Assembly (NCBI GenBank): GCA_016866375.1
Contig: VGMK01000001.1
Coordinates: 1 to 44,227 of the forward strand
Direction: 5' to 3'
Length of the DNA stretch: 44,227 nt
Origin: Bacteroidota bacterium
GTDB taxonomy: Bacteria > Bacteroidota > Bacteroidia > Flavobacteriales_D > Crocinitomicaceae
The notes under the pieces were generated by a model. It was given only the letters and a program-made list of their open reading frames with translations. It was not told the DNA's origin and did not search any database. A program made the translations under genes and the position numbers. Positions 10,440-41,487 of the stretch are shown in pieces (position 1 is the stretch's first letter; each line of letters opens with the position of its first letter).

Positions 10440-10519
10440 ATTCATGAATTGGTGATGATATTATTTCTTGACTTATCAAATTCAAAAATCATACTAAATA
10501 TTTCATTTTTAAAAATGAC

Positions 10520-19271: not shown

Positions 19272-19706
19272 GTGCTTAAAACCAACACTAAATATTTTAT
19301 TAAAAATCACCCCATTGAATTGGAATGGGACTTCTCTGCTATTGGTGGTTTATTCATATATTACCTTAATTCATCGCGTTGGAAAATTCTAAATTTCAGG
19401 TTCACAAAAAAAAGAAACAACATAATAATTTTTCAAAACAGTGATATCATCGATTTCAAATTGTACAGAATTTCATGGTTTCGAATTAAAAAAATGAGTG
19501 TTTTTCATATTTCACCCAAAGCCATTGATCTTGTGAGTACAAAAGTTGAGGTAAAGGAAATAAATGCTCCAGGCATTAACTTTAACTTTTTATCTTTTCG
19601 TAAAAACCCTATTCTTATTAAAGCTAATGGAGAGATTGGACAATTTCACTCTCCGCAAATTTCTAAATTTAATTTAACCATAAATCCATTTACTTATCAT
19701 GAATGA
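19272..19706 (+). CDS. Hypothetical protein (GTG start)
   Basis: 144-aa ORF starting right after the previous stop and overlapping the next gene by 8 nt. No motif recognised. Confidence 0.45.
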   Translation: MLKTNTKYFIKNHPIELEWDFSAIGGLFIYYLNSSRWKILNFRFTKKRNNIIIFQNSDIIDFKLYRISWFRIKKMSVFHISPKAIDLVSTKVEVKEINAPGINFNFLSFRKNPILIKANGEIGQFHSPQISKFNLTINPFTYHE

Positions 19707-24922: not shown

Positions 24923-24925
24923 ATT

Positions 24926-25450
24926 ATGAAAACAGATTTTTACATTGCCCTCACTCAACTCAGCACCTCTGTTGTTATGGGAATTTTAACCGTTTACTTA
25001 ACTAAAGTAATTGTTACGAAATATTACAAAACTAAAACTGGACAAGTAAATCCTTACCAAAACACTTCGTTCATGATTTTTCTTGCCGGAACCATTTTTT
25101 CGGTCTCTTACATGGTTTATGGTATAAATGAACCTTTAGCCGAAACCATGCGCATATTACAGACGCAAGAACTTAGTAAATCTAAGTTAATACTAGAATA
25201 TTTACGTTTTGCAGGGATGTTCCTGACGCTTGCATACGCGTTCAGTGCTGGGGTGATTTTTTTGGCTTACAAACTCTTTTCAATTTTAACCGCGCAATTG
25301 GATGAATATGAAGAAATATCGCGCAATAATATCGGTGTTGCCATACTAGTAAGTGTTTTGACCATTGTAATTGCTTTGTTTGCACATATTGCCTTCATCG
25401 GGTTTATTCAAACATTTATCCCTTATCCAGAAATGCCAACTTTTATCTGA
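24926..25450 (+). CDS. Multi-pass membrane protein, DUF350-like
   Basis: Four hydrophobic helices. EEISRNNIGVAILVS resembles the DUF350 N.AVA motif. Starts 3 nt after the upstream stop. Confidence 0.4.
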   Translation: MKTDFYIALTQLSTSVVMGILTVYLTKVIVTKYYKTKTGQVNPYQNTSFMIFLAGTIFSVSYMVYGINEPLAETMRILQTQELSKSKLILEYLRFAGMFLTLAYAFSAGVIFLAYKLFSILTAQLDEYEEISRNNIGVAILVSVLTIVIALFAHIAFIGFIQTFIPYPEMPTFI

Positions 25451-25995
25451 TGAATCCTGTTTTCAAAACAATTTCAGAGTCGCAAACAGTACTAACTGAA
25501 TTGATGATTCCCAGTTATGCTAATTTCGGTGGTAAAATACATGGCGGTATTTTACTTTCACTTATGGATAAAGTAGCTTACGTTACCGCTTCCAAACACT
25601 ACGGAGGCTACTGTGTTACCGTCGCTGTGGAAGGTGTGGAATTCATGCATCCTGTTGAAGTTGGTCAACTGGTATCTTTGAAAGCGAGCATCAATTATGT
25701 GGGTAAGTCCTCTATGATTGTCGGTATTCGTGTGGAGGCCTTACAGCCTAAAACTGGCGAAGTTTTTCATACAAATAGTTCGTATTTTACCATGGTGGCA
25801 AAGAACGACGACCATCAAACTGATCGCGTACCCGGTTTAATTTTACAAACGGAAACAGAAATTCGACGTTTCTATGAAGGTATGCATCTTAAGCATATGG
25901 CAAAACAAAAACGAGAAATGCTCAAATCCGACTTTTCGTCTCTAACACTTGAAGATATCTGTGCTCACTTACTTGATGAAAATTGTAAGTTTTAA
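25450..25995 (+). CDS. Acyl-CoA thioesterase (hotdog fold, YciA-like)
   Basis: LMIPSYANFGGKIHGGILLSLMDKVAYVTASKH.GGYCVTVAVEGVEFMHPVEVGQLVSLKASINYVGKSSM is the typical acyl-CoA hydrolase core. Confidence 0.85.
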   Translation: MNPVFKTISESQTVLTELMIPSYANFGGKIHGGILLSLMDKVAYVTASKHYGGYCVTVAVEGVEFMHPVEVGQLVSLKASINYVGKSSMIVGIRVEALQPKTGEVFHTNSSYFTMVAKNDDHQTDRVPGLILQTETEIRRFYEGMHLKHMAKQKREMLKSDFSSLTLEDICAHLLDENCKF

Positions 25996-26952: not shown

Positions 26953-27411
26953 ATGCCCCACCTCGAACCCACATACCTCCGCTACATCTACGATGGCCTT
27001 ATCAAAGGAAGTATCCACCCGGAGAATGCTGCTGAATTACCTGATGGTTTGATTGGTATGTATGAAGAAGCCTTCGACGAGCGGACTTCGGTGGTGGAAC
27101 GCCAAAAACTGTTGCAACACTTTGCAATTTGGGCTTTGTTGAAGAAAGAGGTAAGTGCAGCTTTTGTATCCGAAGTTTTAGGAGAAACCGAAGACGACAT
27201 CCAAGAATTCATTTCCACCTACAGTGCCTGGTTCAACAGCCCAGAGAGCGGCAAATATCAATTGTACCACGAGCGATTGAAAGTGTATTTGTTGCAGAAG
27301 TTGAGTGAGGGGGAAGTTCATTCACTGCATGAGAAACTGATTACTCGTATAGAAAGAGCCATTGAAGAGCAAAAAGCGGATGAATTTGAGTGGTATGGGT
27401 TGGAGTTTTTA
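26953..27411 (+). repeat. Copy 1 of a dispersed direct repeat (shared 5' module of the three sensor genes)
   Basis: First 48 nt identical to copy 2. High nucleotide similarity through codon ~122 to both other copies, and through codon ~153 to copy 3. Confidence 0.85.
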
Positions 27412-30400
27412 ACTTCACATTTGGCAATTGCCGCTATGCTCAATGGTGATGGTAAGAAACTGATCAAACTTGCTTATTCCCAAACACATTGGCAACGCCA
27501 ATTGAAAATCAGCAAAGGGTATTCCTGGACAAAAAACAGCTTACAAGAAGTGATGGCCTGGGCTTCTAAATACAATGACGACGAGGTCATTGAATGTGGC
27601 TTGCAGATGGTTGATTTGCACCATCAGGAACAGAATGCAGCGCCTCAAATAGTGGCATTAGTAGCCGAGGGAGAATTTGACGCTGCACTCAAACGTATTG
27701 AGCAATTTGGAGGAAGTGACAAGGAGGGCTTGCAACGGAAGTTTATTTTATATATGCTATGCTTAATGGAGCTTACTTTACTTGGTAGTAAGGATAAACC
27801 AAACCGAAAAGTTGGAATTGACAAATTACTGAAGCATTTAGATGAGCAATTGCCGGTAGATTATTCTATTTTAAAATGGAATGATTTCTTTCCGAGTAAT
27901 ACCATGTTTTTATTGGCATGCGAATGGCATGCATTACGACTCGATTATTTAATTCCGTTCAAAAGAACCGATGCTTGGAATACAGACTGGCTTTCTGTAA
28001 AAGGGCCATATAACGATTCACAATTCGAGATTTTAATTGCCTGTGCAACAGGGATAAGTGATGATAATAGGAAGAGTAGCGCGCTAAAATTCATCAGTGC
28101 CGAACTGGCTAAACAAGGTAATATAGAAGAAGCCCTTGCCTGCGCAACAGGGATAAGTGAAGAGTCAGATAAGAGTAGCGCGCTAAAGGACATAAGTGCC
28201 GAACTGGCTAAACAAGGCAAGATAGAAGAAGCCCTTGCCTGCGCAACAGGGATAAGTTCTGATAGGGCAAAGAGTAGCGCGCTGGCGGCCATCTCCACCG
28301 AACTGGCTAAACAAGGCAAGATAGAAGAAGCGGCATCTGCGATGCAGAAAGCCCTTGCCTGCGCAACAGGGATAAGTGCTGATTGGGCAAAGAGTAGCGA
28401 GCTACAGGACATCAGTGCCGAACTGGCTAAACAGGGTAAGACCAAAGAAGCTGCATCTGTGATACAGGAGGCGCTTGAATGTGCCCGAGCCATTAGTGAT
28501 AATATACTTAAGAGTATGGCGCTAAAGGACATCAGTGCCGAACTGGCTAAACAAGGCAAGATAGATGAAGCCCTTGCCTGCGCAACAGGGATAAGTTCTG
28601 ATTGGGCAAAGAGTATGGCGCTAAAGGACATCAGTGCCGAACTGGCTAAACAGGGGAAGACTGAAGAAGCAGCATTTATGATGCAGGAAGCTCTTGAATG
28701 CGCCCGCGGCATTGATATTAACAATAGAGGTTTGATTAACAAGGTTAGAGCGCTAAAGGACATCAGTGCCGAACTGGCTAAACAAGGCAAGATAGATGAA
28801 GCCCTTGCCTGCGCAACAGGGATAAGTGATGAGTCAGATAAGAGTAGCGCGCTAAAGGATATCAGTGCCGAACTGGCTAAACAAGGCAAGATAGAAGAAG
28901 CGGCATCTGCGATGCAGAAAGCCCTTGCCTGCGCAACAGGGATAAGTTCTGATATGGAAAAGAGTAACGCGCTAAAGGACATCAGTGCCGAACTGGCTAA
29001 ACAAGGCAAGATAGATGAAGCCCTTGCCTGCGCAACAGGGATAAGTGATGAGTCAGATAAGAGTAGCGCGCTAAAGGACATCAGTGCCGAACTGGCTAAA
29101 CAAGGCAAGATAGAAGAAGTGGCATCTGCGATGCAGAAAGCCCTTGCCTGCGCAACAGGGATAAGTTCTGATATGGAAAAGAGTAACGCGCTAAAGGACA
29201 TCAGTGCCGAACTGGCTAAACAAGGTAAGATAGATGAAGCCCTTGCCTGCGCGATAGGGATAAGTGATGAGTCAGATAAGAGTATGGCGCTGAATGACAT
29301 CAGTGCCGAACTGGCTATACAAGGCAAGTTAGATGAAGCCCTTGCCTGCGCAACAGGGATAAGTTCTGATTGGGCAAAGAGTGACGCGCTAAAGGACATC
29401 AGTACCGAACTGGCTAAACAAGGCAAGATAGAAGAAGCCCTTGCCTGCGCAACAGGGATAAGTTCTGATAGGGCAAAGTGTAGCGCGCTGGCGGCCATCT
29501 CCACCGAACTGGCTAAACAAGGCAAGATAGAAGAAGCGGCATCTGCGATGCAGAAAGCCCTTGCCTGCGCAACAGGGATAAGTTCTGATAGGGCAAAGAG
29601 TGTGGCGCTGAACGACATCAGTGCCGAACTGGCTAAACAAGGCAAATTAGAAGAAGCCCTTGCCTGCGCAACAGGGATAAGTGGTGATAATCTGAAGAGT
29701 AGCGCGCTGAAGGACATCAGTGCCGAATTGGCTAAACAAGGCAAGATAGAAGAAGCCCTTGCCTGCGCAACAGGGATAAGTTCTGATAGGGCAAAGAGTA
29801 GCGCGCTAAAATTCATCACTGCCGAACTAGCTAAACAAGGTAAGATAGAAGAAGCGGCATCTGCGATGCAGAAAGCCCTTGCCTGCGCAACAGGGATAAG
29901 TTCTGATTGGGACAAGAGTGACGCGCTAAAGGACATCAGTGCCGAACTAGCTAAACAAGGCAAGATAGATGAAGCCCTTGCCTGCGCAGCAGGGATAAGT
30001 AATGATTATTGGAAGAGTAGCGCGCTAAAGGACATCAGTGCCGAACTGGCTAAACAAGGTAAGATAGATGAAGCCCTTGCCTGCGCGATAAGGATAAGTG
30101 ATGAGTCAGATAAGAGTATGGCGCTGAAAGACATCAGTGCCGAATTGGCTAAACAAGGCAAGTTAGAAGAAGCCCTTGCCTGCGCAACAGGGATAAGTTC
30201 TGATAGGGCAAAGAGTAGCGCGCTAAAATTCATCACTGCCGAACTTGCTAAACAGGGCAATTGGACGCTTGCAGAAACTACAGGCTTGGAGATTCCGTTA
30301 TCAAATATTAGACATCTTTGTTGGCAGAATATTGCAAACAATTTTATTAACGAAAACAGTTGGCAGAGGTCTTTGGAAATGGTAAATCAATTTCAAAATT

Positions 30401-30648
30401 TCGAGGCAAAGAATCACTACTTAAAAGGTTTTTCGGATTCAATACGTGCATACGAATGTTCAGAAAATCTATTTCTTTCGGTAAATAGATTTTATTTAAA
30501 TAACTTAGATTCATTAGAAACACTTTTACAAAAACATGCGTTGCATCAATTGTTTTTCCAAGATGCTTCGGCAGTAAAGTTAGAACGCTTTAACCGCACA
30601 CTGAATATCCAATGGGCGATAGACATCAAAAACCAATTACCAAACTAA
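26953..30648 (+). CDS. Sensor arm 1: STAND-type helical/winged-helix module plus about 21 tandem 33/40-aa helical (TPR-like) repeats
   Basis: N-terminus PTYLRYIYDGL...LPDGLIGMYEEAF...KLLQHFAIWALLKKEVSAAFVSEVLGETEDDIQEFIS..SAWFNSPESGKYQLYHERLKVYL fits the post-NTPase PLYL...winged-helix (Y.F.H..L..YL) pattern of NACHT/NWD-like STAND proteins. Then the repeat ACATGIS....KS.ALKDISAELAKQGK.EEAL. Confidence 0.8.
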   Translation: MPHLEPTYLRYIYDGLIKGSIHPENAAELPDGLIGMYEEAFDERTSVVERQKLLQHFAIWALLKKEVSAAFVSEVLGETEDDIQEFISTYSAWFNSPESGKYQLYHERLKVYLLQKLSEGEVHSLHEKLITRIERAIEEQKADEFEWYGLEFLTSHLAIAAMLNGDGKKLIKLAYSQTHWQRQLKISKGYSWTKNSLQEVMAWASKYNDDEVIECGLQMVDLHHQEQNAAPQIVALVAEGEFDAALKRIEQFGGSDKEGLQRKFILYMLCLMELTLLGSKDKPNRKVGIDKLLKHLDEQLPVDYSILKWNDFFPSNTMFLLACEWHALRLDYLIPFKRTDAWNTDWLSVKGPYNDSQFEILIACATGISDDNRKSSALKFISAELAKQGNIEEALACATGISEESDKSSALKDISAELAKQGKIEEALACATGISSDRAKSSALAAISTELAKQGKIEEAASAMQKALACATGISADWAKSSELQDISAELAKQGKTKEAASVIQEALECARAISDNILKSMALKDISAELAKQGKIDEALACATGISSDWAKSMALKDISAELAKQGKTEEAAFMMQEALECARGIDINNRGLINKVRALKDISAELAKQGKIDEALACATGISDESDKSSALKDISAELAKQGKIEEAASAMQKALACATGISSDMEKSNALKDISAELAKQGKIDEALACATGISDESDKSSALKDISAELAKQGKIEEVASAMQKALACATGISSDMEKSNALKDISAELAKQGKIDEALACAIGISDESDKSMALNDISAELAIQGKLDEALACATGISSDWAKSDALKDISTELAKQGKIEEALACATGISSDRAKCSALAAISTELAKQGKIEEAASAMQKALACATGISSDRAKSVALNDISAELAKQGKLEEALACATGISGDNLKSSALKDISAELAKQGKIEEALACATGISSDRAKSSALKFITAELAKQGKIEEAASAMQKALACATGISSDWDKSDALKDISAELAKQGKIDEALACAAGISNDYWKSSALKDISAELAKQGKIDEALACAIRISDESDKSMALKDISAELAKQGKLEEALACATGISSDRAKSSALKFITAELAKQGNWTLAETTGLEIPLSNIRHLCWQNIANNFINENSWQRSLEMVNQFQNFEAKNHYLKGFSDSIRAYECSENLFLSVNRFYLNNLDSLETLLQKHALHQLFFQDASAVKLERFNRTLNIQWAIDIKNQLPN
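28039..30260 (+). repeat. In-frame tandem repeat array, 99-bp and 120-bp units, about 21 copies
   Basis: gcctgcgcaacagggataagt...gccgaactggctaaacaaggcaagatagaagaagccctt recurs head to tail. It leaves long stop-free antisense ORFs. Confidence 0.95.
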
Positions 30649-31013
30649 TGCCCCACCTCGAACCCACATACCTCCGCTACATCTACGATGGCCTTGTAAA
30701 AGGAAGCATCCATCCGGAGAATGCCGCAGAATTACCAGACGGCCTCATTGGCATGTACGAAGAAGCCTTCGATGAGCGCACTTCCGTGGTGGAACGCCAA
30801 AAACTGTTGCAACGCTTTGCCATTTGGGCACTTTTAAAGAAAGAAGTGAGTGCAGCATTTGTATCCGAAGTTTTAGGCCAAACTGAAGACGACATCCAAG
30901 AATTCATTTCCTCCTACAGCGCCTGGTTCAACAGCCCAGAAAGTGGCAAATACCAGTTGTATCACGAGCGCTTGAAGGTGTATTTGTTGCAGAAGATGAG
31001 TGAGGGGGAGGTT
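30648..31013 (+). repeat. Copy 2 of the dispersed direct repeat
   Basis: See copy 1. Similarity ends abruptly after the gagggggaggtt segment. Confidence 0.85.
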
Positions 31014-33146
31014 GCTGAATTAAATTCTAAAATTGTTGAATTTCTTCTGCATAAAGTAAATGATGCGCAGGAAAATGAATCGGTTCTTTACTGTTTTGAA
31101 AATCTATCATTTCACTTATTTTTAAATGGATATCTAACGGGGGAAAGTGCACTTTTGGCTCAATTTTGTCTTGATGATAATTTTAAAAAACGACAATTTG
31201 AACTATCTGGTTATTATGACTGGGAAGAAAAAATGATGGTTTTAGGAGTGGAATACTTTTCCCTCAAACAAGATTCGATTTGTCATCAAATAGTATTTGA
31301 GAAAACAAAAATACAATTTAAGAAAAAGAATATTGATCTTATAATTTCTTTACTTAAGCGAGATAAATTTGAATTATTATTTTCATTATTTAAATCATTA
31401 TATGAAAAAGAACTTGAGCAAAGGATAGCAACCGCTTATTTGTATCATTTAACTTTTTTTGAAATTTTTGAATTGGAAAACAAAAGTTTTATACTGAAAA
31501 AAGAAATTGCAAATCAACTTTTAGAAACTTTCGAAGAATATTTCATTTGGGATAGAGGTTATTATTTGGCACAGTTTATTGATGTAAATATATTATTTCG
31601 CTTACACTGCTATTTTGTGCAATTTGGTTTAGATTTTAAAAAAATCGCTATTCTTTCATCTGATCAGAATACAGAATATTATGGTTTGGACATTAGGTAC
31701 GAAGATTTAAAGTTTATTGATCCAAAGCATAAGGAAGAAGCAATTACCATTCTACAACTTTTTAAAATATTCGATTACGGTATTAGTTATGTTGAGAAGT
31801 CGAAAATTGTAGATTTAGTTGATGAATTAACTAATAATCCGATTAACAATAAACATTATGCTTTTAGAAGTCATCTGCAGAAAAAGCTTCAAATTATTGG
31901 TAAAACAAAATTGCTAAAACAAAACGATTTGATCGAAATTGTTGAAAATGAAGTTCATTCGTTCAAAGAATTGATTTTGAGTATAAAATTTATTTTAGGA
32001 ATTAATGAGTTAACACATCATTTGAAAAGAGAGGCAAGCTTGCTTTTCCAAAAGACTTTATTAGAACAAGCTAATGGTAAATTGGAGTTTTCAGGTTACT
32101 GGCATAGAAATGATTTAAAAATAATTAAATTAGATAATAAAATAAGCTCAAATCAAACTCAAATATTGGATTTATTGACTGTTGAGTCGTTCGGTTCAAT
32201 GGACCCAAAATCTAGATTCGACGCGTTGAATAAAGTTGTTTTTAGCGAAGAATTAGAGGTTGAAATACTCCTTGCTTTTTTAGATTTATCACTCTTTTTT
32301 GATGGTAATGAGAACAAAGATATTCTAGATCTTTTTTCATCGTTATTTGTGGAATTTATTTTGGACACAGATGAAGAAAAGATAATGCTATACACGTCAA
32401 AATTGTTTGACTCATTAGCAAATATGGAACACCATTCTGAGGAGTTTGAAGATAAAATATTTGATATAACAATCAATTTTTTTAAGAGTAATGATTTCAA
32501 TGGATATTCCAAAAGCACCTTGGTAAATTATCAAGAGAGTATTCTTAACCTATATTTCGACTTCAATTTCTATAATTATTCTTTCAAACAAGGTATTGCA
32601 TTAATTAATTTGTTTAATCAGCATCAAATTGATTTTCCAGAAGAAGAAATCATAGAAAGAATTCTTGAAGATCTTGATGCTATGATTGAAGAGAATGATT
32701 ACAATGAAATGTGGGTTATTGAAAACTCAAAAATTGACCGAGTTTATTCAAAATCCTATTTCTCGGATTTTTACGATTGTGTAAAAAGAATCCAAATAGA
32801 ACAGGTAAGAAATAATTTGAGTGAATATATTTTTGAGTCGATTATTGAACTGAAAGGCCTTAATTACAACACCATTTCCTTTTTTAGAGAAAATGCAAAT
32901 GAATACCGAGGAATGTATTTATGGGCCAAAAAACGCTTAAGTCAGAAATTATTTGAAAAAAATGAAGAGTTATCCTATGTTGTGTTAAAAGACAACAACG
33001 ATTTATTATTGGAGCGCTTACTTCTGAATATCGTCTCCAAAAGAGAAAATTTGAAGGAAGAAATTAAAATTGAAACTCTCAAACATTATGGCTTGGATTG
33101 GGTAATTGAATTGGATAATGAGTATGAAAAATTAATTGCCAACTAA
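30648..33146 (+). CDS. Sensor arm 2: same N-terminal STAND helical/WH module plus an unrelated AT-rich helical C-terminal region
   Basis: Start set at MPHLEPTYL (the ATG overlaps the upstream TAA as TAATG). 5 substitutions relative to gene 1 in the first 122 aa, then complete divergence after SEGEV. Confidence 0.8.
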   Translation: MPHLEPTYLRYIYDGLVKGSIHPENAAELPDGLIGMYEEAFDERTSVVERQKLLQRFAIWALLKKEVSAAFVSEVLGQTEDDIQEFISSYSAWFNSPESGKYQLYHERLKVYLLQKMSEGEVAELNSKIVEFLLHKVNDAQENESVLYCFENLSFHLFLNGYLTGESALLAQFCLDDNFKKRQFELSGYYDWEEKMMVLGVEYFSLKQDSICHQIVFEKTKIQFKKKNIDLIISLLKRDKFELLFSLFKSLYEKELEQRIATAYLYHLTFFEIFELENKSFILKKEIANQLLETFEEYFIWDRGYYLAQFIDVNILFRLHCYFVQFGLDFKKIAILSSDQNTEYYGLDIRYEDLKFIDPKHKEEAITILQLFKIFDYGISYVEKSKIVDLVDELTNNPINNKHYAFRSHLQKKLQIIGKTKLLKQNDLIEIVENEVHSFKELILSIKFILGINELTHHLKREASLLFQKTLLEQANGKLEFSGYWHRNDLKIIKLDNKISSNQTQILDLLTVESFGSMDPKSRFDALNKVVFSEELEVEILLAFLDLSLFFDGNENKDILDLFSSLFVEFILDTDEEKIMLYTSKLFDSLANMEHHSEEFEDKIFDITINFFKSNDFNGYSKSTLVNYQESILNLYFDFNFYNYSFKQGIALINLFNQHQIDFPEEEIIERILEDLDAMIEENDYNEMWVIENSKIDRVYSKSYFSDFYDCVKRIQIEQVRNNLSEYIFESIIELKGLNYNTISFFRENANEYRGMYLWAKKRLSQKLFEKNEELSYVVLKDNNDLLLERLLLNIVSKRENLKEEIKIETLKHYGLDWVIELDNEYEKLIAN

Positions 33147-33148
33147 CC

Positions 33149-33607
33149 ATGCCCCACCTCGAACCTACCTACCTCCGTTACATATACGATGGCCTTATCA
33201 AAGGAAGCATCCATCCGGAGAATGCCGCCGAATTACCAGATGGCCTCATTGGCATGTACGAAGAGGCCTTCGATGAGCGCACTTCAGTAGTAGAACGCCA
33301 AAAACTGTTAAAACGCTTTGCCATTTGGGCATTATTGAAGAAAGAAGTGAGCGCTGCATTTGTTGCGGAAATATTGGGAGAAACAGAAGATAACATCCAA
33401 GAATTCATTTCCACCTACAGCGCCTGGTTCAATAGCCCAGAAAGTGGCAAGTACCAGTTGTACCACGAGCGCTTAAAAGTGTATTTGTTGCAGAAGTTGA
33501 GTGAGGGGGAGGTTCATGCGCTTCACGAAAAACTCATTGGAAGATTAGAAAAGGCCATAAAGGAACAAAAAGCAGATGAATTTGAGTGGTATGGGTTGGA
33601 GTTTTTG
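33149..33607 (+). repeat. Copy 3 of the dispersed direct repeat
   Basis: See copy 1. Confidence 0.85.
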
Positions 33608-35458
33608 GGATATCATTATTCAATTGAAAGTAAATCAACAAAAGACTCAAAAATTGCCAAAGATTTTTTTAACCTGTTTTATGATTTCCAATCATCAAAG
33701 AAGATTCTCAAAAGGCAACAAGAGCTTTCCAATTCTTATAAGTGGTCAAAAGAAAACCTTCATCTTTTGAGTGAACTAGGGATCATTTTTAATTCATATA
33801 AAATATTTAATATTTCAGATATAGCTTGTGAAATTCATAAAGAAGAGTATGATATTATTGAAAAATTAGAAAAACTCTTGATTGATGGGAATAATAACCA
33901 TGCAATTGATTTAGTTTCTGAGCTTCATGCAGATGAGTTAGAATTAATAGAAATAAAGATTTATCATTTATTATTTGTACTATTTTCAATTGAGGATGAA
34001 AATAGTATTAAAAACGTTGTTCTTATTCTTGAAGATTTATTGTCTAAAAATGCTGGTGAGCTGTTCGATTTAGAAGAAGATATACTTCGAAATATCGGAG
34101 AACCGTCAAGTCTAATTTTTTCAATTTGTACGAAAATAGAATGTTTTGGGTTTTCTTCAGAATTTATAATTCAAAGTTGTAATGACTGGGAATCGAGGGG
34201 ATTCTTGTCAGATTCCAAAAATAATTTAATTGATTATAGAAGCATTATTGATGTAATAAAGTCAGTAATAATTCAAAGAAATAGTGACTTTTATTCTATC
34301 AATATTGAATTCGAAAAGCCAGAAAAGTTCATCGATAACTACTTAAAGACATTAGAATTATTGGAGTCTGTAGAAAATTTCAATGACGAGGCGGAGGTAT
34401 TTCATTATTTTATTTCAAATAAAGGAGCGTTTAATTTAACGAATGTATACGCATTAGTAAAATGTTTTCAATCCTTCAAATCTCAAAATGTAAAGGATAT
34501 TTTGGTAGATAAGTTTTGGGAAATTTTAATTCTAGATTTAGATGTTATTGATTACATTTTCGATTTATCAAATAACGTTACCTTAAATAGACTGGCATAT
34601 ACTAAGTCTGAGGTTTTATCTGAAATTTCCTCAATTAGTCAATCCCCGAAAATATTGGATTCTTGCAGAGCAATAATTGAAATAAGAAATCAAAAAGATT
34701 ATCTAGAAAAATTAGACATTTCTTTTTGTAGCAGATTTGATTCATCATTTGAATTCAAATTTCATTGTTTACAAGCAGTACTAAATCCCGAACAAAAAAA
34801 AGTCTGTTTAAATTTAAAGTATCTTTATTTTAAAGAATTATTCGAATCGAATATTGAAACAGATATTTTAAATTATAATATTGACATTTTAGAAGAGTTC
34901 GTGGCCTTTTGCACCTTTTGCAAACAAAAATATAGTGAACTTATAGATGAGCTTGTTACTTGTTTTGTTAACAATCTTGGGCACTATGAGAAGTGGCAGT
35001 TTGATGAAAATTTATTTTTTTTAATCGACGAAATGAACAAAAAGAGTCTATCTATTGAGGCTTACAAAATCTTGGATATGATGAAAACACCACTGATTCA
35101 AAAAGTGACACTAATGAAGTCATTTGCGAATTGGGCGTTCTTTAATAATCATTCACTGTCATTTAAAAGTGAAGAACTTGCTTTCATTAGAAATGAACAT
35201 CGACAATATGTTATTCTAGGTTGGTTAAAAGATGGTTACGGTTCAGTATCATTTGATTTAAACGTTGGTAATGAATTGCCTTACGTTCCAAATTCGCTTA
35301 TTAATCAAAGTTTATATCTGGAAAATCAAATATTTATAATTGATAGACCAGATATACTTAAATTATTTTCCTTGAAACTAATTGAGGAAGAAAATAATAC
35401 TGAAAAGATGAAATCATTTTTCCCCTTTATTTACAGTACTTTAGAAAACTCCAATTAA
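33149..35458 (+). CDS. Sensor arm 3: same N-terminal module plus a third, unrelated AT-rich C-terminal region
   Basis: ATG 2 nt after the upstream stop. 5 substitutions relative to gene 1 in the first 122 aa. Shares the extension VH.LHEKLI.R.E.AI.EQKADEFEWYGLEFL with gene 1 only. Confidence 0.8.
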   Translation: MPHLEPTYLRYIYDGLIKGSIHPENAAELPDGLIGMYEEAFDERTSVVERQKLLKRFAIWALLKKEVSAAFVAEILGETEDNIQEFISTYSAWFNSPESGKYQLYHERLKVYLLQKLSEGEVHALHEKLIGRLEKAIKEQKADEFEWYGLEFLGYHYSIESKSTKDSKIAKDFFNLFYDFQSSKKILKRQQELSNSYKWSKENLHLLSELGIIFNSYKIFNISDIACEIHKEEYDIIEKLEKLLIDGNNNHAIDLVSELHADELELIEIKIYHLLFVLFSIEDENSIKNVVLILEDLLSKNAGELFDLEEDILRNIGEPSSLIFSICTKIECFGFSSEFIIQSCNDWESRGFLSDSKNNLIDYRSIIDVIKSVIIQRNSDFYSINIEFEKPEKFIDNYLKTLELLESVENFNDEAEVFHYFISNKGAFNLTNVYALVKCFQSFKSQNVKDILVDKFWEILILDLDVIDYIFDLSNNVTLNRLAYTKSEVLSEISSISQSPKILDSCRAIIEIRNQKDYLEKLDISFCSRFDSSFEFKFHCLQAVLNPEQKKVCLNLKYLYFKELFESNIETDILNYNIDILEEFVAFCTFCKQKYSELIDELVTCFVNNLGHYEKWQFDENLFFLIDEMNKKSLSIEAYKILDMMKTPLIQKVTLMKSFANWAFFNNHSLSFKSEELAFIRNEHRQYVILGWLKDGYGSVSFDLNVGNELPYVPNSLINQSLYLENQIFIIDRPDILKLFSLKLIEEENNTEKMKSFFPFIYSTLENSN

Positions 35459-35463
35459 ATAAT

Positions 35464-36054
35464 ATGCGAACAATTAAACACAAATTTTATGAAAACCCAC
35501 TTCCGTCATGGGAGTGCAAGACCCTAATTCTAGGTACATTCAATCCAGAAATTGGTTCTGATGCTGATTACTATTATGGACGAATTCGACCAACAGGCGG
35601 TTGGAGCAATCGATTTTGGCCAGCAGTTAATTCTTATCTCGAAGTCAATTGTCTGGAAATTCCGCTCGCTGGAAAAGGTGATTTAAATTCAAAAGTCAGA
35701 ATAATGTCTAAGTTCAAATTTGGATGTGTAGATATTATTTCTCGAATTGAATGCAGGAATGAGGAGTATATTACAGGGAACGGCTTCGCAGATGCAGCAA
35801 TTTTTCATCCACATAACAAAGTTTATTTTAATACTGAGTTGATTATTGATTTTATCAATTCTAACGGAGTAAAGAAGGTCATTTCTAGTTTCGGCAGAGG
35901 AACTTCACTGAATCAAAGTGCTTTAGCTGAAATAGATAGCATTAAAATTGCATGTACAAAAGTTGATTTTCACTTATTTGATTTACCTGCCTTCGGAAGA
36001 CCAATGAAATCGACCGAGCAGTTTGGAAAGGAATTGTTTAAATTTATTTTATGA
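35464..36054 (+). CDS. Uracil-DNA glycosylase superfamily protein (deoxyinosine/MUG-like pattern)
   Basis: CKTLILGTFNPEIGSDADYYYGRIRPTGGWSNRFWPAV resembles the LILGSFPS...YY.h..N.FW N-terminal motif of UDG-superfamily glycosylases. ATGA overlap with the next gene. Confidence 0.45.
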   Translation: MRTIKHKFYENPLPSWECKTLILGTFNPEIGSDADYYYGRIRPTGGWSNRFWPAVNSYLEVNCLEIPLAGKGDLNSKVRIMSKFKFGCVDIISRIECRNEEYITGNGFADAAIFHPHNKVYFNTELIIDFINSNGVKKVISSFGRGTSLNQSALAEIDSIKIACTKVDFHLFDLPAFGRPMKSTEQFGKELFKFIL

Positions 36055-37583
36055 CCCTCACAACCCCACCCAACCTCCCACCACGCCTCCTGCATAGAAT
36101 CGAGGCGGTTCAGAAAGAAGATGACGCATACGCTGCGGATGAACTCGTTGAATTAGGTGAAGAAATTCTGTCCCAATTGGCTGCGTTGGGAATTGCTGTT
36201 TATTTGCAACAAGGGAAGCAGAAAGAAGTGTTTAACGACTTTTTGATTTCGTTGTTTTTGTCGAATGGGCATGCCTATAATGCAGGACCGCTGTATCGCT
36301 GGGCGGCAAATATGATCAAAGAAGCAGAAAGCACAGATGCAGAATTATTGAAGCCCTTTTTCTGGCAAGAGAAGGACGGAAAAAAAGTGTTGAACGAGGC
36401 CATTCATCATTTGGCGAGTTTGCGCAATGCGGTGATGCACGGTTTTTTTGTTTTGCCTCCTGAAAGAAATAGAGAAGAGACGCAAAAGATGACAGCGATT
36501 TTGGAGCAAATGAACAAAGCTGGTTTGTTTGAAAAGCAATTTGGAACGTTTCATTTTGTGGATTCGAATGGATTCAATGGGCATTGGAATATAATTGATT
36601 CCAAAGCGTGGACAAATTTCTCCGAATGTTTTTCCTTTGGGGAATTAGCTCAGCGGGTTTCACATGAATACTCAGAGAATTTCCGATTAGAAGAACGAGC
36701 ATTTGCCACGGAGAAAACAACTTCACACGCAGATGTCCAACAAGCTACCTATGAATTGCTCGAAAAAGGCAAAGGGGCATTGGTGTGTTGGTACAGTCCG
36801 GGTTCCAAAGGTGGAAAAGAAGCTTATCGTTCAATGGTTCAGTCGGTATCCAACGAAACTTATCTGCCTATTTACTATGCCTTGCATGAGCGTGGAGCCA
36901 CTTTTACCACCGCATTTTTTACTAAGGAACTCGGAAATGCGCTCTTTGAGCTTACACAGAAAGAAAATGCGCGAAAAGAACCGATCAAATTTCTTAAAAA
37001 CAGAGACAACTCCAAATTTGTAACGAAGAAACCTGTATTGATTTTGCATGATATTCACGTAGCTTTATTCAACGACAATCACTTGACATTGTTTTTTAAT
37101 GAACTATTTGATGCAGGTATACCCGTCTTATGCACCGCATGGCCGTATCCTTACCTTCGCAGATTTTTCAACCAAGAAGTATATGTGGATGAACAACCGA
37201 AACAAATTACAATTGAAATTATCGAATACTCGTTGAACAATTACTTGCGCTTCAAAGGGCCGAGCAAAGAACAAAACGACCAAGTTGCGGAATACCAAAA
37301 AGTAAAGGATATCGTGTTTGCAATACATCAACAATTGGAAAACGGTGAATCCTTAGTTGCACGACGCTTTGCAGATCAATACACTTACCCGATTGAATTT
37401 GTGCACGAGGCTTTCAGTATTTTGAGTCCCTTCTACAGGCTTGATAAAGAAAAATTTAAAGAGGATGAGGTGGATGAGTTGTATGGATTCCCAAAAACCA
37501 TCGAAGAAAGTTCACGAATTTTCTTAACTTTAGGTCGACGTGATGTGAAACTGGAATATCAGCATAGAGTGTTGTCGAAATAA
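36051..37583 (+). CDS. HEPN-like (RNxxxH) N-terminal domain plus a degenerate P-loop NTPase-like domain
   Basis: LASLRNAVMHG (R125-H130, nt 36423-36440) fits the Rx4H HEPN motif. WYSPGSKGGKEAY is a degenerate Walker A. PVLILHDIHV is Walker-B-like. Same layout as the 38084 gene. Confidence 0.5.
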   Translation: MTLTTPPNLPPRLLHRIEAVQKEDDAYAADELVELGEEILSQLAALGIAVYLQQGKQKEVFNDFLISLFLSNGHAYNAGPLYRWAANMIKEAESTDAELLKPFFWQEKDGKKVLNEAIHHLASLRNAVMHGFFVLPPERNREETQKMTAILEQMNKAGLFEKQFGTFHFVDSNGFNGHWNIIDSKAWTNFSECFSFGELAQRVSHEYSENFRLEERAFATEKTTSHADVQQATYELLEKGKGALVCWYSPGSKGGKEAYRSMVQSVSNETYLPIYYALHERGATFTTAFFTKELGNALFELTQKENARKEPIKFLKNRDNSKFVTKKPVLILHDIHVALFNDNHLTLFFNELFDAGIPVLCTAWPYPYLRRFFNQEVYVDEQPKQITIEIIEYSLNNYLRFKGPSKEQNDQVAEYQKVKDIVFAIHQQLENGESLVARRFADQYTYPIEFVHEAFSILSPFYRLDKEKFKEDEVDELYGFPKTIEESSRIFLTLGRRDVKLEYQHRVLSK

Positions 37584-37597
37584 TAATAATTTAAAAA

Positions 37598-38053
37598 ATG
37601 GATTTAAAACTAAAATTTGGTGAAAACTATATTCTACTTGCTGGATTAAGGCAGTTTATTGAGCACGGAGTAATACTTTCCTCGGTTAATTTTTGGAGAG
37701 ATAGCTTTCAGAATTTTCAGGAGTTAAGAGCAGTTGATAAACGTTCAGAAATACTGAAAACGAATAATGCTTTTTATGAAGATGAGTTTCTCGTTTCCTT
37801 TGTCAATGAAGAATTTCCGGTATTTGAAGATCAAATTCCGGATGACGTAATCCCAACAGTTTTGAAATTAATTGAGCACGAGGAAGGACCCAAAACCGCA
37901 AGTTTGACCAAAGAATTTCTATTGCAATACGCAGTTTTTATTGCGAAATCTTCAAAGGAAGATTATTTAGCATTTGTAGGAATCAAGGATTCGATAAGTG
38001 ATGAAGAGCAAGTATTTATAGAGAAAATAAAACATTTGTTCGATGAACATTAA
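37598..38053 (+). CDS. Small acidic hypothetical protein
   Basis: 151-aa ORF in the operon. No motif recognised. Confidence 0.5.
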   Translation: MDLKLKFGENYILLAGLRQFIEHGVILSSVNFWRDSFQNFQELRAVDKRSEILKTNNAFYEDEFLVSFVNEEFPVFEDQIPDDVIPTVLKLIEHEEGPKTASLTKEFLLQYAVFIAKSSKEDYLAFVGIKDSISDEEQVFIEKIKHLFDEH

Positions 38054-38083
38054 GAAACGGCGGTGTTTTTTCGATAAATAATT

Positions 38084-39571
38084 ATGAACCCAATCCAACA
38101 CTACCATAAACGCTACGAAGAAATAAAGCTAGAGAAAAAGGTTTCTTCAGATATTGACGTGTTAGCAGACCTCATTGAGAACGATAACGCTGGCTTGAAT
38201 AATTTCTTCATGGCTGCTTTTGGAATGAGCACCTTGATCTTACGCATGGGAGCGGTCATACAAATGTGCCGAAAATTTGAACTTTTGGATGAATACGGAG
38301 ATGCTCTTTTTACAAAACAAGTGTTGGATAACCTCCGCGAAACCTTGCCCTCCGATACCAGTTGGAAGAATGTTTGGAATATCAGTGCTGTGGATGATGC
38401 TTGGAAAAGTCCAACGCTTCAAGCAAAAGGCGGTCAGTCGCTCTTAGATCGGTTTGTGACATTTAGAAATAAGTTCGTACATCAAACTATTCAGTTGACT
38501 CAAAATAGTCTGCCGCAGTTAAGCAACGGAGTAACAATGTTTGAGGAACTTACAAACCTCATTTCGCTTTTTGAAAATGGGAATTTAGAACTAATCGAGG
38601 GAAAATACCATTGGGTAGAAAATAATAAATCCATATGTATGTATCCTTATGTTCAAGTTGGAATGGAAAAAGATCATCCCTACATTTTTCAGGGTTTGCA
38701 TAAGTCAAAAGAAAAAGTTGCCATTCTCAACTTAATCGCAGGAAATGAGGAAGCGCAAGAGGCTCAGATATTAGAACAAGTTTTTGAACCGATGCGCTCT
38801 TCCTTACAAGGTGGCGCCGGACAAGTATTCGATCACAGCGAACGCATTGCCTATTACCAATCTTGTTTTGTTGGTCGTGATCGAGAGAAAAATGCCATTC
38901 TAGATTTCTGTGCGCATAATGACAATCAGAACATACTCTGTGTAAAGTCTCCAGCAGGAATGGGCAAAGGAGCGTTAATTGCCGACGTGATTCAACAATT
39001 AAAAGAGAATAAAACGCAAGTGCTCTATCATTTTTGTGGTGCCGGAATGCAAAACAGTCTTCATGCTGCATTGTACCATTTTATTTTGCAGGGCACAAGA
39101 ACAGCTTACTGGGATCGCTCAGATGAAACCATTGACCGTAAATTGAATCGTTTGCCATCAAAACTTATCGATGTAATCCATTTGTTTCAGTCCTTGTTGA
39201 GTGAACACTTGAATATCCAAAAAAACAACACCACAGGAAATTTAGTCATCATCATTGACGGCCTCGACGAAGCCCAAGTTGCCTATTCACAACTCAAAAT
39301 ATCGGATTGGTTTTATTCCTACAACGAAAAAGAAGAACCGGAAGAAGATTGGCGAAGCGCATCAAACATCCGCTGGGTTTTTACCTATCGTTGCGATGAC
39401 GATGGAAAAGAATCCTTTTATCAATTTCCCAAGATGAAAGAATGTGTTCACATCGACATGCTACAGCCCCTTCAAGGACTTTCCCCAGCAGCAGTTGATG
39501 AAGCATTTAAGGATTTCAAGGTGTCTGATGATTTTAAGAAAACAGTGATTGAGAAGGCGGAGATAGTATAA
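38084..39571 (+). CDS. HEPN-like (RNxxxH) N-terminal domain plus a STAND-type P-loop NTPase core lacking the winged-helix and sensor regions
   Basis: FVTFRNKFVHQ (R128-H133, nt 38465-38482). FVGRDREKNAILDF...ILCVKSPAGMGKGALIADV is Walker A with Gly in the usual Ser/Thr position. NLVIIIDGLDEA is Walker B. RWVFTYR is a sensor-1-like strand. LQPLQGLSPAAVDEAF follows, and the protein ends at ...TVIEKAEIV. Confidence 0.7.
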   Translation: MNPIQHYHKRYEEIKLEKKVSSDIDVLADLIENDNAGLNNFFMAAFGMSTLILRMGAVIQMCRKFELLDEYGDALFTKQVLDNLRETLPSDTSWKNVWNISAVDDAWKSPTLQAKGGQSLLDRFVTFRNKFVHQTIQLTQNSLPQLSNGVTMFEELTNLISLFENGNLELIEGKYHWVENNKSICMYPYVQVGMEKDHPYIFQGLHKSKEKVAILNLIAGNEEAQEAQILEQVFEPMRSSLQGGAGQVFDHSERIAYYQSCFVGRDREKNAILDFCAHNDNQNILCVKSPAGMGKGALIADVIQQLKENKTQVLYHFCGAGMQNSLHAALYHFILQGTRTAYWDRSDETIDRKLNRLPSKLIDVIHLFQSLLSEHLNIQKNNTTGNLVIIIDGLDEAQVAYSQLKISDWFYSYNEKEEPEEDWRSASNIRWVFTYRCDDDGKESFYQFPKMKECVHIDMLQPLQGLSPAAVDEAFKDFKVSDDFKKTVIEKAEIV

Positions 39572-39589
39572 TTAAACTAATTTTACACC

Positions 39590-40138
39590 ATGAAAATTAT
39601 TAAAAAATTTGATCAATATATTAACTTGTCCAGTTTTCAAACGATTGAATTCTCAGACGGCATGTTAATTTTTACAGCTGAATTCTATGGTTCATATGAA
39701 ATACCTCAACAAGATATTTTATCATCAAACCCCTCTTTATCATTAGGAAAAGAACTATCGTTGATTATAAAAAAATCTCATTTTAACGAATTAAAAAATC
39801 AATTTGATAAATTTCTTTTAAGTGAAGAATGTCTCTTTGACATCTCAAAATATATTGAAGTAATCAATTTAGAAGAGGTAAACACTGACTTTTTAGATAC
39901 AAGCTCACTCGACCCTATGTTCGTAGATATAGCCAGAATTGTTGTTATTAATCAAGAAGCTTCAGCCAGTATGCTTCAACGGAAATTAAGTCTCGGATAC
40001 AATAGAGCAGGTCGAGTCGTTGACCAATTAGAAGAGGCGAATATTATTGGCCCTTTTGAAGGAAGTACTCCTAGAAAAATACACTTTCAAGATATTGAAG
40101 ATTTAGATTCGCATTTAAGGTCATTAGGTCTGATTTAA
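39590..40138 (+). CDS. Stand-alone FtsK-gamma (winged-helix) domain protein
   Basis: C-terminus DPMFVDIARIVVINQEASASMLQRKLSLGYNRAGRVVDQLEEANIIGPFEGSTPRKI matches the FtsK/SpoIIIE gamma domain (S.S.LQR...IGYNRA.R..D.LE..GI.GP..GS..R). Confidence 0.8.
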   Translation: MKIIKKFDQYINLSSFQTIEFSDGMLIFTAEFYGSYEIPQQDILSSNPSLSLGKELSLIIKKSHFNELKNQFDKFLLSEECLFDISKYIEVINLEEVNTDFLDTSSLDPMFVDIARIVVINQEASASMLQRKLSLGYNRAGRVVDQLEEANIIGPFEGSTPRKIHFQDIEDLDSHLRSLGLI

Positions 40139-40154: not shown

Positions 40155-40955
40155 TCACCAACTTACCTGCAACTGAAAGTTCAAGCTGTAATAATAAGTG
40201 TCCACAGGTAAGGCTCTGTAGAAATCTAAGTTGTGCTCGTAATTACAGTTAATAGACAAGTGTTTGTTTATTTTAAAAAATATACTGGCATTCATGGCCC
40301 AGCGTGGATCAAGAAAATGACTGAAGCTGTCATTTAGTGGAAATTGAATGAAATTACTTGTAGCAAAATCAATATTATCGGTGATTTTTAACGCCATTTT
40401 CACGGCATTGTTCCATCGAATCAAATTGCGTGATACGCTAGTGACAGAGCTATCAAAGTCAAAGGAAGAAAGTGCTGGGTTCCACAATTCGTGCTCAAAA
40501 AATGCCCCAGAGGCCAAATACAAATCACTTTCCTTATTTTCCCAAAACTTAAAACGCGCATTGACACCAGCCAAGGTTCTGTTCTGCATGCCTAAAATCC
40601 CGTTCCATTGCAATTGTGCATAGTAATCCGGTGAAACCCGTTTTTTATCGTTATCGCGAAGGCGTAACATGAAGTATCCGTTATTTTCCAAAAATGACGA
40701 CCCATTGGTCTGTAAAGCGGTATTTCCGAGTAAAATAAGCACTTGATTGTTTTTAAAAAACACATCCAATTCTTCTGCGCTTTCAATCTCCAGAATATTA
40801 TTCTTTTGTTTGTCCAATGCCACCCCTGAAGTCCAAGTAAAGGCAACTTTTTTCTGAATAGAATCTTGACCATTTTCCCTGTCTACGGAAAGAACTTGTG
40901 CACTCAAAGGAGCAATGAAAAACAAACTAAAGATGAGACTAATCGTACTTTTCAT
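40155..40955 (-). CDS. Putative outer-membrane beta-barrel protein (DUF481-like?)
   Basis: Start trimmed to MKSTISLIFSLFFIAPLSAQ (signal peptide). Alternating amphipathic strands. C-terminal ...FQLQVSW aromatic terminus. Confidence 0.5.
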   Translation of the reverse strand: MKSTISLIFSLFFIAPLSAQVLSVDRENGQDSIQKKVAFTWTSGVALDKQKNNILEIESAEELDVFFKNNQVLILLGNTALQTNGSSFLENNGYFMLRLRDNDKKRVSPDYYAQLQWNGILGMQNRTLAGVNARFKFWENKESDLYLASGAFFEHELWNPALSSFDFDSSVTSVSRNLIRWNNAVKMALKITDNIDFATSNFIQFPLNDSFSHFLDPRWAMNASIFFKINKHLSINCNYEHNLDFYRALPVDTYYYSLNFQLQVSW

Positions 40956-41487
40956 AGTAGATAAATGCGTGTTCATTCCAAAATTTGGTTGATTTGGTAA
41001 ATTCTTCCTCGGAAAGAGTGTGGGAAGGCAATGGTGGCGCCAAGCATCCCGGAAAACAGGTGATAACCTTCTGATCCTCTGCAATCAAGATCACATTTCG
41101 CGTGTAAATATTTGAATCGCTAGAAAATGTCCAAACTAGTATTCCTCCTCTTTCTCTTTTGACAATTTGTTTTTGTTGATCTTCTGAAAGTAAATCTATC
41201 CTAATAACCGCATCTGTGCCTACAGGTTCAGAAAATGTAAAATGATAAGCTATGCGGTTTTCACGTTGCGGAATAATTTCTTGAGGAGTGAGTGTATTTA
41301 GATGGGAAATTAAGGAAAAAGGTCCCTTGCTAAAACCAGGAAGAAACTTTGAGCCTAATTCCATCAAACGTTGTGAGATAACACGCGAAGCGGAAAAATT
41401 CTCTAACCTCTCCCTTTCAGATTCCTCTATAAATGTAAAGTGCTTGCATAAATAAAGTGCATTTTCATATCCAATTTCAAATGTCAT
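40939..41487 (-). CDS. Hypothetical protein
   Basis: 182-aa ORF, ATGA-coupled to the upstream 435-aa gene. No motif recognised. Confidence 0.5.
   Translation of the reverse strand: MTFEIGYENALYLCKHFTFIEESERERLENFSASRVISQRLMELGSKFLPGFSKGPFSLISHLNTLTPQEIIPQRENRIAYHFTFSEPVGTDAVIRIDLLSEDQQKQIVKRERGGILVWTFSSDSNIYTRNVILIAEDQKVITCFPGCLAPPLPSHTLSEEEFTKSTKFWNEHAFIYYEKYD

Follow-up and report, generated by a model that had tools for sequence, protein, structure and literature searches.

Contacts among the nucleotide-binding domain, the lid and the winged helix hold receptors of the STAND/NLR type off, and to our knowledge these three elements lie on one chain in every such receptor studied so far. In Apaf-1-like STANDs, a conserved histidine of the winged helix sits on the bound ADP, and in Avs proteins the binding of a phage protein by the sensor leads to oligomerisation. 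HEPN regions cut RNA only when two Rx4-6H motifs stand face to face. Here, we describe an eight-gene operon from a Bacteroidota bacterium of the Crocinitomicaceae (assembly GCA_016866375.1), found at positions 26953-40138 of the first 44,227 nucleotides (nt) of contig VGMK01000001.1, a stretch that we call the window. The operon encodes a core protein with a P-loop domain and a HEPN-type motif (H1), three proteins with a common N-terminal module and different C-terminal regions (the arms A1, A2 and A3), a HEPN-like protein (H2) and three further proteins (U, S and F). We give a probability of roughly 0.6 to the reading that the operon encodes a three-part sensor-effector system of the NLR/STAND type, whose STAND NTPase module is shared by two polypeptides, H1 and an arm.

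Single-chain bacterial HEPN-STAND-TPR proteins of the Npun_F6454 type are predicted conflict or abortive-infection proteins (Anantharaman et al. 2013; PMC3710099). They have the same parts as this operon in the same order, namely a HEPN-type region, a STAND P-loop NTPase and TPR-type repeats. There, however, the parts form one polypeptide, whereas here a break inside helical domain 1 is predicted to divide the chain, one to three copies of the second half occur with different sensors, and H2 is obligatory. The operon also shares with Avs the tripartite logic of effector, NTPase and sensor, and Avs3 (8dgc) is the best structural match of the arm; Avs proteins, in contrast, are single chains with one sensor each, and their effectors are mostly DNases and similar rather than proteins with a HEPN-type motif. 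Apaf-1 resembles the arms in sequence (A1 residues 39-162 align to Apaf-1 residues 362-496, and the Pfam family APAF1_C falls on the following helices) and in modelled structure (Foldseek probability 1.0). It differs in that the P-loop domain of H1 is NPHP3_N/NACHT-like and not NB-ARC, and in that Apaf-1 joins WD40 sensors and a CARD effector in a single chain.

As in NAIP-NLRC4 inflammasomes and the sensor/helper NLR networks of plants, several specialised sensors appear to serve one common executor; each partner in those systems, however, is a complete NLR with its own NTPase, whereas the sensors here have no P-loop and would complete the executor's switch. The iSTAND ternary conflict systems of Bacteroidetes and others combine a STAND-derived protein with variable effectors and peptidoglycan- or OmpA-linked partners (Kaur et al. 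2020; PMC7159879). They too are multi-gene conflict systems around a STAND-derived protein, but they contain a MoxR-vWA pair and an inactive, complete STAND, whereas this operon has no MoxR or vWA gene and H1 keeps the Walker A lysine and the Walker B acids. In the literature, including a 2020 survey of conflict systems and a 2026 survey of STANDs, we found no STAND with its P-loop domain and its winged helix on different proteins. A PADLOC scan of all eight proteins returned no Avs or other defence model, the best hits being P-loop-only matches with E-values of 1e-5 or weaker. Both results agree with an initial annotation of this DNA, made from the sequence, which knew of no described defence system of this architecture and had proposed the PADLOC scan. 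By its parts the system would belong to the STAND superfamily; it is not Avs as now defined, and it probably works like Avs.

Results

H1 carries a STAND-type P-loop core

H1 (38084..39571, plus strand; 495 amino acids, aa) is the core subunit of the operon. Its residues 275-410 match the Pfam family NPHP3_N with an E-value of 8.9e-13 (49.2 bits against a cutoff of 24.8). AAA_16 also scores above its cutoff (35.2 against 32.6 bits), and NACHT and nSTAND1 score below theirs. The NPHP3_N match exceeds the curated cutoff in 17 of 17 H1 homologs, and NACHT matches all 17 below cutoff. These results bear out the STAND-type P-loop core that the initial annotation had read from the motifs of H1. From its N-terminus, H1 consists of a helical region with the RNxxxH motif, a beta-rich insert at about residues 166-226, the P-loop domain at about residues 260-447, and two helices.

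The motifs quoted earlier for H1 (RNxxxH, FVGRD, Walker A and B, RWVFTYR and LQPL..LS) are all present on the plus strand and invariant in 59 homologs. The HEPN-type Rx4H motif RNKFVH occupies residues 128-133 (38465..38482), with R128, N129 and H133 invariant. The Walker A motif SPAGMGKGA (residues 289-297; 38948..38974) is nearly all invariant in 59/59 homologs: K295 and G296 never vary, and P290 and M293 are kept in at least 90%. This motif is non-canonical, since all 59 homologs have GMGKGA, in which a glycine replaces the Mg-binding serine or threonine after the lysine. This GKG suggests that H1 may not hydrolyse nucleotide at all and that its core may serve as a switch that binds nucleotide, not as a hydrolase. 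In the Walker B motif VIIIDGLDEA (residues 388-397; 39245..39274), D392-A397 are invariant, as are R430, W431, F433, Y435 and R436 of the sensor-1 strand IRWVFTYR (39368-39391). The same holds for FVGRD and LQPL..LS..V.EAF, and the protein ends with ...IEKAEIV.

The Pfam matches of H1 to HEPN families are weak and below cutoff (HEPN_RiboL-PSP in 2 of 17 members, E 0.023), and one source labels an H1 homolog as a member of the YutE/DUF86 family. The structural model of H1 has a mean predicted local distance difference test score (pLDDT) of 54 overall, and the HEPN fold is modelled without confidence. A Foldseek search with this model gave nothing usable, and the H1 family profile had no match in the PDB. 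Past the sensor-1 strand the model has two helices only, at residues 468-474 and 482-491, which are locally confident; the protein then ends. The beta-rich insert (residues 166-226, about 60 residues; 38579-38761) lies between the HEPN-like helices and the P-loop domain, and its Foldseek matches are small Tudor/SH3-like barrels of low confidence.

The arms share a module that resembles the second half of a STAND

A1 (26953..30648; 1231 aa), A2 (30648..33146; 832 aa from the conserved ATG) and A3 (33149..35458; 769 aa) are all on the plus strand. As the initial annotation had noticed, they start with a common N-terminal module, which comprises residues 1-122 (26953..27318, 30648-31013 and 33149-33514) and is 93-96% identical across a 118-aa core; the DNA likeness among the three begins exactly at the ATG. 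In A1 the module is followed by a helical domain, about 20 TPR-like repeats of 33/40 aa and a C-terminal tail. Pfam recognises TPR_2 (E 5.7e-22) and TPR_12 (E 5.5e-17) in this protein, and Tandem Repeats Finder reports a tandem array of 99- and 120-nt units at 28037-30260. The array had previously been given as 21 units; its tandem nature was confirmed, and the number of clear units came to 20. A 672-aa antisense open reading frame (ORF) at 27945-29963 on the minus strand crosses the array and is a by-product of the stop-free opposite strand of the repeats, not a gene. In A2 the module precedes an AT-rich helical region that matches no recognisable family, and in A3 another, different AT-rich helical region; arm C-terminal regions other than that of A1 are helical and have no family assigned.

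The AlphaFold model of A1 residues 1-360 has a mean pLDDT of 77.7. Residues 1-40 form two short helices of low confidence. Residues 45-116 form a winged helix of three helices, a hairpin and one helix more (pLDDT >80), and residues 119-300 form a helical domain with pLDDT mostly at 86-97, going down to 75-89 toward its end; across residues 41-300 as a whole, the two domains have pLDDT 77-97. When this model was searched against the PDB with Foldseek, the best matches were Avs3 (8dgc) and Apaf-1 (1z6t/3sfz/3shf), all with a probability of 1.0, and the root-mean-square deviation to one Apaf-1 chain was 4.1 Å across 198 columns. The next match was the STAND-TPR protein 6mfv, with a probability of 0.69.

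Sequence comparison pointed in the same direction. With phmmer, A1 residues 39-162 aligned to Apaf-1 residues 362-496 (E 0.005), and with an H1+A1 chimera as query Apaf-1 was matched only via the arm half. Pfam APAF1_C gave a weak match at arm residues 124-187 (E 0.01). Since the domain map of Apaf-1, which we take to be nucleotide-binding domain 108-284, helical domain 1 285-365, winged-helix domain 366-450 and helical domain 2 451-589, places residues 362-496 in the winged helix and the first part of helical domain 2, the aligned part of the arm would correspond to these elements. By extrapolation, arm residues 1-38 would match the end of helical domain 1, which carries the GxP element in STANDs. 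Pro6 of the arms is invariant and lies in the motif (L/I)(E/D)P(T/S)YLR, which reads LEPTYLRY in the window. Among 35 diverse arms, the winged helix carries an invariant His106 in LYHERL, which falls on YYLHDL of Apaf-1 in the alignment, and the densest invariant run is found in the first 40 residues (P6, Y8, L9, R10, D14, G19, N25, L29, P30, G32, G35 and Y37). These residues are invariant yet appear to fold poorly alone, as would be expected if they fold against a partner. No STAND model of Pfam extended over the junction of artificial H1+arm fusions. Taken together, the similarity of the modelled fold and three weak, concordant sequence signals suggest that the N-module is the post-core half of a STAND, in agreement with the proposal of the initial annotation.

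A predicted split inside helical domain 1, fixed across the family

According to the models, the cut falls inside helical domain 1, with two helices on H1 and two on the arm. It had been proposed that the STAND module is split exactly at the boundary between the core and the 'PLYL' helix. H1 does end just before the expected GxP/'PLYL' helix, but the cut would lie inside helical domain 1 and not at a domain boundary. Among the features that mark a STAND, the P-loop domain is present in H1 and a C-terminal repeat sensor is present in A1 (TPR_2, about 20 units), but H1 does not carry helical domain 1 with GxP on the P-loop chain, since it ends after two helices. The GxP element appears to be present but divided between the two chains.

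The position of the cut hardly varies. More than 120 clusters of H1 homologs, down to 64% identity, are all 494-505 aa long, and their C-termini end at the same helix plus a few loose residues. When 1.84 billion representative proteins were searched exhaustively with HMMER, 519 arm clusters emerged (356 at E <1e-30), and in all of the best 150 of the 519 (proteins of 219-1434 aa) the module begins at residue 1-14. At the DNA level, 138 module copies with an intact start, from the window and 97 fetched loci, were inspected for upstream extensions. An in-frame stop lies at most 40 codons upstream in 136 of the 138, no stop is farther away than 48 codons, and one copy lies at a contig edge; none of the 138 copies has an upstream ORF extension able to hold a P-loop domain. 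A junction query made of the last 80 aa of H1 and the first 100 aa of an arm retrieved 113 proteins or fragments that each cover one half only; the tool used favours short proteins, and this result speaks mainly about fragments. Fused homologs, for which the initial annotation had proposed a search, were sought in the best 150 of the 519 arm clusters, in the 138 genomic copies and with the junction query, and none was found. These sequence comparisons indicate that all of the family keeps the same split, which is no accident of one genome.

Arms, H2 and H1 occur together

A search seeded on H1, in which each species was represented by a single genome, yielded 20 loci; these come from no more than 20 of the 185,579 species genomes. 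All are from metagenome-assembled genomes of freshwater Bacteroidota (Crocinitomicaceae, Flavobacteriales and Aquirufa), and the taxonomic spread of the family is sporadic. Contig look-ups added 3 loci and arm-module seeding in metagenomes added 74 more, and the same layout was found again in 97 loci besides the window. One to three arms are present in 12 of 12 H1-seeded loci with enough upstream sequence. In the reverse direction, all metagenome loci that were seeded on the arm module and continue for at least 7 kb past the last arm on its downstream side contain H2 and H1 (15/15), and H2 lies directly upstream of H1 in 43 of 44 H1-holding sources. The usual order is arms, U or U2 (a longer relative of U), H2, optional small genes, H1 and an optional FtsK-gamma protein; the optional genes between H2 and H1 are S, a 216-aa protein and a membrane-anchored FtsK-gamma protein. 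This plan is unchanged in divergent loci with modules 53-59% identical (L094), and the linkage is kept despite rearranged surroundings and H1 divergence down to 56%. No relatives of H1 were found in phage, plasmid and IMG/VR collections.

Two features of the relatives differ from the window. In locus L023, a second arm (10001-11619) is broken into pieces of 173, 110 and 240 aa beside an intact arm, and is a decaying arm. A classical AAA+ protein of about 345 aa (PF00004 and AAA_lid_6) with an N-terminal membrane segment lies in or beside the operon of L001 (7607-8644), L002, L008, L022, L023, L025 and L030, and is absent from the window.

A constant module on diverse sensors

The DNA of the three modules in the window is 86-90% identical, and any two copies differ at 25-42 synonymous and 5-8 non-synonymous codons, which suggests that they are old paralogs under strong purifying selection. 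Between loci, module identity reaches 97% where the H1 proteins are 64-83% identical. The sensor regions evolve much faster: orthologous sensors are 41-82% identical against 92-96% for their modules. For example, A2 and an arm of its type in L002 have 92% identity over the N-module against 50% over the variable part, and the variable part of an A3 ortholog in L004 is 82% identical. At least 35 sensor types occur among 137 full-length representatives, and Pfam recognises a few of these only, as TPR. A constant plug on a fast-evolving sensor is, judged from these sequences, the pattern expected of an immune receptor. The synonymous divergence of the modules is only somewhat lower than that of H1. 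Concerted evolution of the arms within a locus was considered and rejected, since module identity is no higher within than between loci.

Accessory proteins and operon layout

H2 (36051..37583, plus strand; 510 aa) has a HEPN-like N-terminal region with invariant R125, N126 and H130 (RNxxxH), and its remaining two thirds match no recognisable family. The family HEPN_LA2681 matches 8 of 12 members weakly (best E 0.0015; 16.8 bits, below the cutoff of 27). The initial annotation had called H2 a degenerate HEPN-NTPase paralog of H1. Homology between the H1 and H2 families was detected neither by profile-profile alignment with hhalign nor by BLASTP, and no P-loop family of Pfam, PADLOC or the PDB matched H2; what remains is the weak HEPN_LA2681 match and the conserved RNxxxH. 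The label 'HEPN-like' is thus reasonable for H2, judged by its motif and profile, and 'NTPase paralog' is unproven.

U (35464..36054, plus strand; 196 aa) is a short form of the 236-aa family U2 (hhalign E 2.5e-4 over 170 columns), which stands between the arms and H2 in most loci. U had been described as UDG-like, a label that did not hold up: U and its 236-aa relatives have no UDG or other match in Pfam and NCBIfam, the family profile has none in the PDB, and a loose motif resemblance (LILGxFP, FW and PSPG) is all that is left. S (37598..38053, plus strand; 151 aa), a small accessory protein, is variable, being present in 3 of 44 H1-holding sources, and has no family match. F (39590..40138, plus strand; 182 aa) does carry the FtsK-gamma domain assigned to it earlier, as a C-terminal winged helix (PF09397) at residues 107-165, with an E-value of 7.6e-23 and 80.4 bits against a cutoff of 30.6. 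Its homolog in L001 scores 34.5 bits, and its occurrence is variable, as for an optional accessory; other loci have a 152-aa membrane-anchored FtsK-gamma protein just ahead of H1.

The eight ORFs that span 26953-40138 are all on the plus strand and closely packed, with intergenic distances of -4 to +30 nt. The overlaps TAATG (30646-30650) and ATGA (36051-36054), reported in the initial annotation together with this packing, were confirmed, and such stop/start overlaps suggest co-translation of the operon genes. The mechanical ORF of A2 begins at 30612. Because its homologs all begin 3-6 residues ahead of the LEPTYLR motif, we place the real start at the ATG at 30648, which overlaps the stop codon of A1. 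The GC content is 0.28 in the variable parts of A2 and A3, 0.46-0.49 in the constant modules and 0.49 in the A1 repeats, with a window mean of 0.35. A scan for promoters and terminators gave counts that did not differ from those in shuffled sequence.

Genomic neighbourhood

The window opens with tRNA-Gln (54-129), which adjoins a large serine recombinase on the minus strand and a MerR-like gene (92-2824). These genes have the look of an integration end, belonging to a genomic island on which everything downstream may be carried. At 4026-6256, a gene that weakly matches BanI/DpnII restriction enzymes comes after one for a C5 cytosine DNA methylase (Pfam E 1e-76), and the two form a probable type II restriction-modification pair. 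At 7544-10439, a SNF2-family helicase (PADLOC DpdE/ZorD-like, E 3e-20), preceded by a 429-aa gene with no match, overlaps a NOV_C/PD-T4-1-like gene (E 2e-14); these two are a probable second defence module. Two DEDD-type exonuclease genes, one fused to Fib_succ_major and the other with Exonuc_X-T_C, lie at 11240-13147 and 15115-16653, with a 589-aa protein without family between them. Together, the recombinase, the restriction-modification pair, the SNF2/NOV_C pair and the exonucleases look like a defence island.

Ahead of the operon, a block at 19699-25995 encodes DUF4407 (twice), an OmpA/MotB-like protein, a 571-aa membrane protein, DUF350 and a 4HBT thioesterase. In many loci (L001, L016, L017, L025, L049 and L060), the DUF4407/OmpA/DUF350 block directly adjoins the operon on its upstream or downstream side, in varying position and orientation. 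Behind the operon, at 40155-42791 on the minus strand, lies a gene for a 435-aa protein that matches a PADLOC CorA-like membrane effector (E 1.5e-7), with 182-aa and DUF481-like partners. In L001, L005 and L060, this CorA-like gene directly follows H1 on the same strand.

Discussion

The computational evidence supports five properties of the system: the domain content of both halves, the fixed split, the strict co-occurrence of arms and core, selection on the module, and the diversification of the sensors. The split-STAND anatomy is, in our judgement, quite likely to be right. H1 would provide the effector region of HEPN type, the P-loop domain and the opening pair of helices of helical domain 1. 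An arm would add the closing pair, with the GxP-type proline, and then the winged helix with its histidine, helical domain 2 and the variable sensor.

We infer docking, ligand sensing, oligomerisation, RNase activity and a role in defence because Apaf-1, NLRC4 and Avs work in this way, and to the full mechanism we give even odds. One H1 would dock non-covalently with any single arm to form a closed, nucleotide-bound, autoinhibited switch, in which the Pro-helix and the winged-helix histidine of the arm close over the nucleotide on the P-loop of H1. A phage-derived ligand bound to the sensor region of the arm would release this lock and open the switch. The H1:arm units would then oligomerise, which would pair the HEPN region of H1 with that of a second H1 or with that of the obligatory, HEPN-like H2. 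A composite Rx4H RNase site would form and arrest the infected cell. Several arms per core would widen the range of recognition, and the constant 122-aa module would allow arms to be exchanged while the core is left untouched. If so, the system would be a trans-assembled NLR in which the ADP-locking elements, namely the GxP helix and the winged-helix histidine, sit on exchangeable sensors and a fast-evolving set of more than 35 sensor types programs a single NTPase/RNase core in a combinatorial way, with the 122-aa module as a universal plug; we regard this picture as a possibility that could fall either way.

Several points weigh against a divided STAND switch of this kind. In H1, the Walker A motif has a glycine where the Mg-binding serine or threonine is expected, and the HEPN identity consists of the motif and very weak profile matches. 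On the side of the arm, the links to solved STANDs are marginal in sequence: the N-module family profiles have no match in the PDB, the phmmer match to Apaf-1 arises only with A1 as a single query, and His106 lies one column off the histidine of LHD in Apaf-1 in the HMMER alignment. The Foldseek E-values of the arm model are modest, at 0.03-0.2. The lack of any PADLOC defence model for the eight proteins also counts here. Finally, the always-present H2 could be the true partner of the arms, and the recurring membrane-protein blocks may mean an output other than RNase activity or a role outside defence.

The last two points each lead to another explanation of the locus. The arms might dock on H2, or on an H2-H1 heterodimer, in which H2 would be an inactive, diverged NTPase-like scaffold akin to 'iSTAND' and H1 would be recruited as the active partner. 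Such a role would fit the presence of H2 in 43 of 44 H1-holding sources, always between the arms and H1, and a strand-loop-helix pattern with a decayed G..G.K-like loop at H2 residues 235-375; inactive STANDs are documented in multi-protein conflict systems (PMC7159879). However, the hhalign comparison of the H1 and H2 families gave nothing, H2 lacks a P-loop match in Pfam, PADLOC and the PDB, and it is H1 whose STAND core is bona fide and breaks off at exactly the point where the arms take over. We consider this arrangement unlikely. A signalling or regulatory STAND linked to the envelope, of the MalT/AfsR type, would have no anti-phage role; its winged helix and the FtsK-gamma protein would bind DNA, and the membrane blocks would be its targets. 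Hypervariable sensors on a constant module, one to three paralogous sensors per locus, the Rx4H motif and the sporadic spread are hallmarks of immune receptors and argue against it, as do the island context, with the restriction-modification pair and SNF2/NOV_C, and structural matches that include the antiviral Avs3. On the other hand, many loci have the DUF4407-OmpA-DUF350-thioesterase block and the CorA-like protein next to the operon, in an order that changes, FtsK-gamma is a winged helix that binds DNA, no PADLOC model matches, and the family was not found in phage, plasmid and viral-contig collections. A signalling or regulatory role of this kind seems improbable to us.

Two further explanations question the link between arm and core itself. 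All loci come from related freshwater Bacteroidota, so that synteny alone could hold the genes together, and the sequence evidence for the STAND link of the module is weak; the arms might then be free-standing winged-helix/TPR proteins that share an island ancestry with an independently truncated NTPase. Against such a coincidence, the linkage of arms and H1 outlives rearranged surroundings and H1 divergence down to 56%, H1 stops and the arm starts at complementary points of one fold, the first 40 residues of the arm are the most conserved and have no fold of their own, and the stop/start overlaps suggest co-translation. This makes it very unlikely. It could also be that the split is apparent only, with the halves joined by DNA rearrangement, recoding or protein splicing, or with the arms kept as silent cassettes for a full-length gene elsewhere. 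The window does contain a large serine recombinase, and the arms share about 366 nt of DNA that is 86-90% identical and able to recombine. But the arms lie upstream of H1, an order that does not suit fusion, the arm starts and the end of H1 are not linked by repeats (the longest common word is 8-11 nt), no intein motifs are present, each arm has its own conserved ATG with a stop few codons upstream, and the databases searched hold no fused protein or junction-spanning fragment. Joining by rearrangement, recoding or inteins was rejected on account of the absent border repeats, the gene order and the absent intein motifs, and an apparent split of any kind has almost no weight in our assessment.

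The preferred reading, a STAND switch divided between H1 and an exchangeable arm, would mean that autoinhibition and activation can work in trans. If it is true, the system would be ready-made for dissecting the lock and release contacts of NLRs, since the two halves can be mixed, titrated and mutated independently, and the constant plug module could be an engineering handle for joining new sensor domains to a common effector. For the bacteria that carry it, many sensors on one executor would be a cheap evolutionary route to broad recognition, like NAIP/NLRC4 and the helper NLRs of plants at far less coding cost, and the family would represent a bacterial 'sensor/helper' immune network at the sub-domain level.

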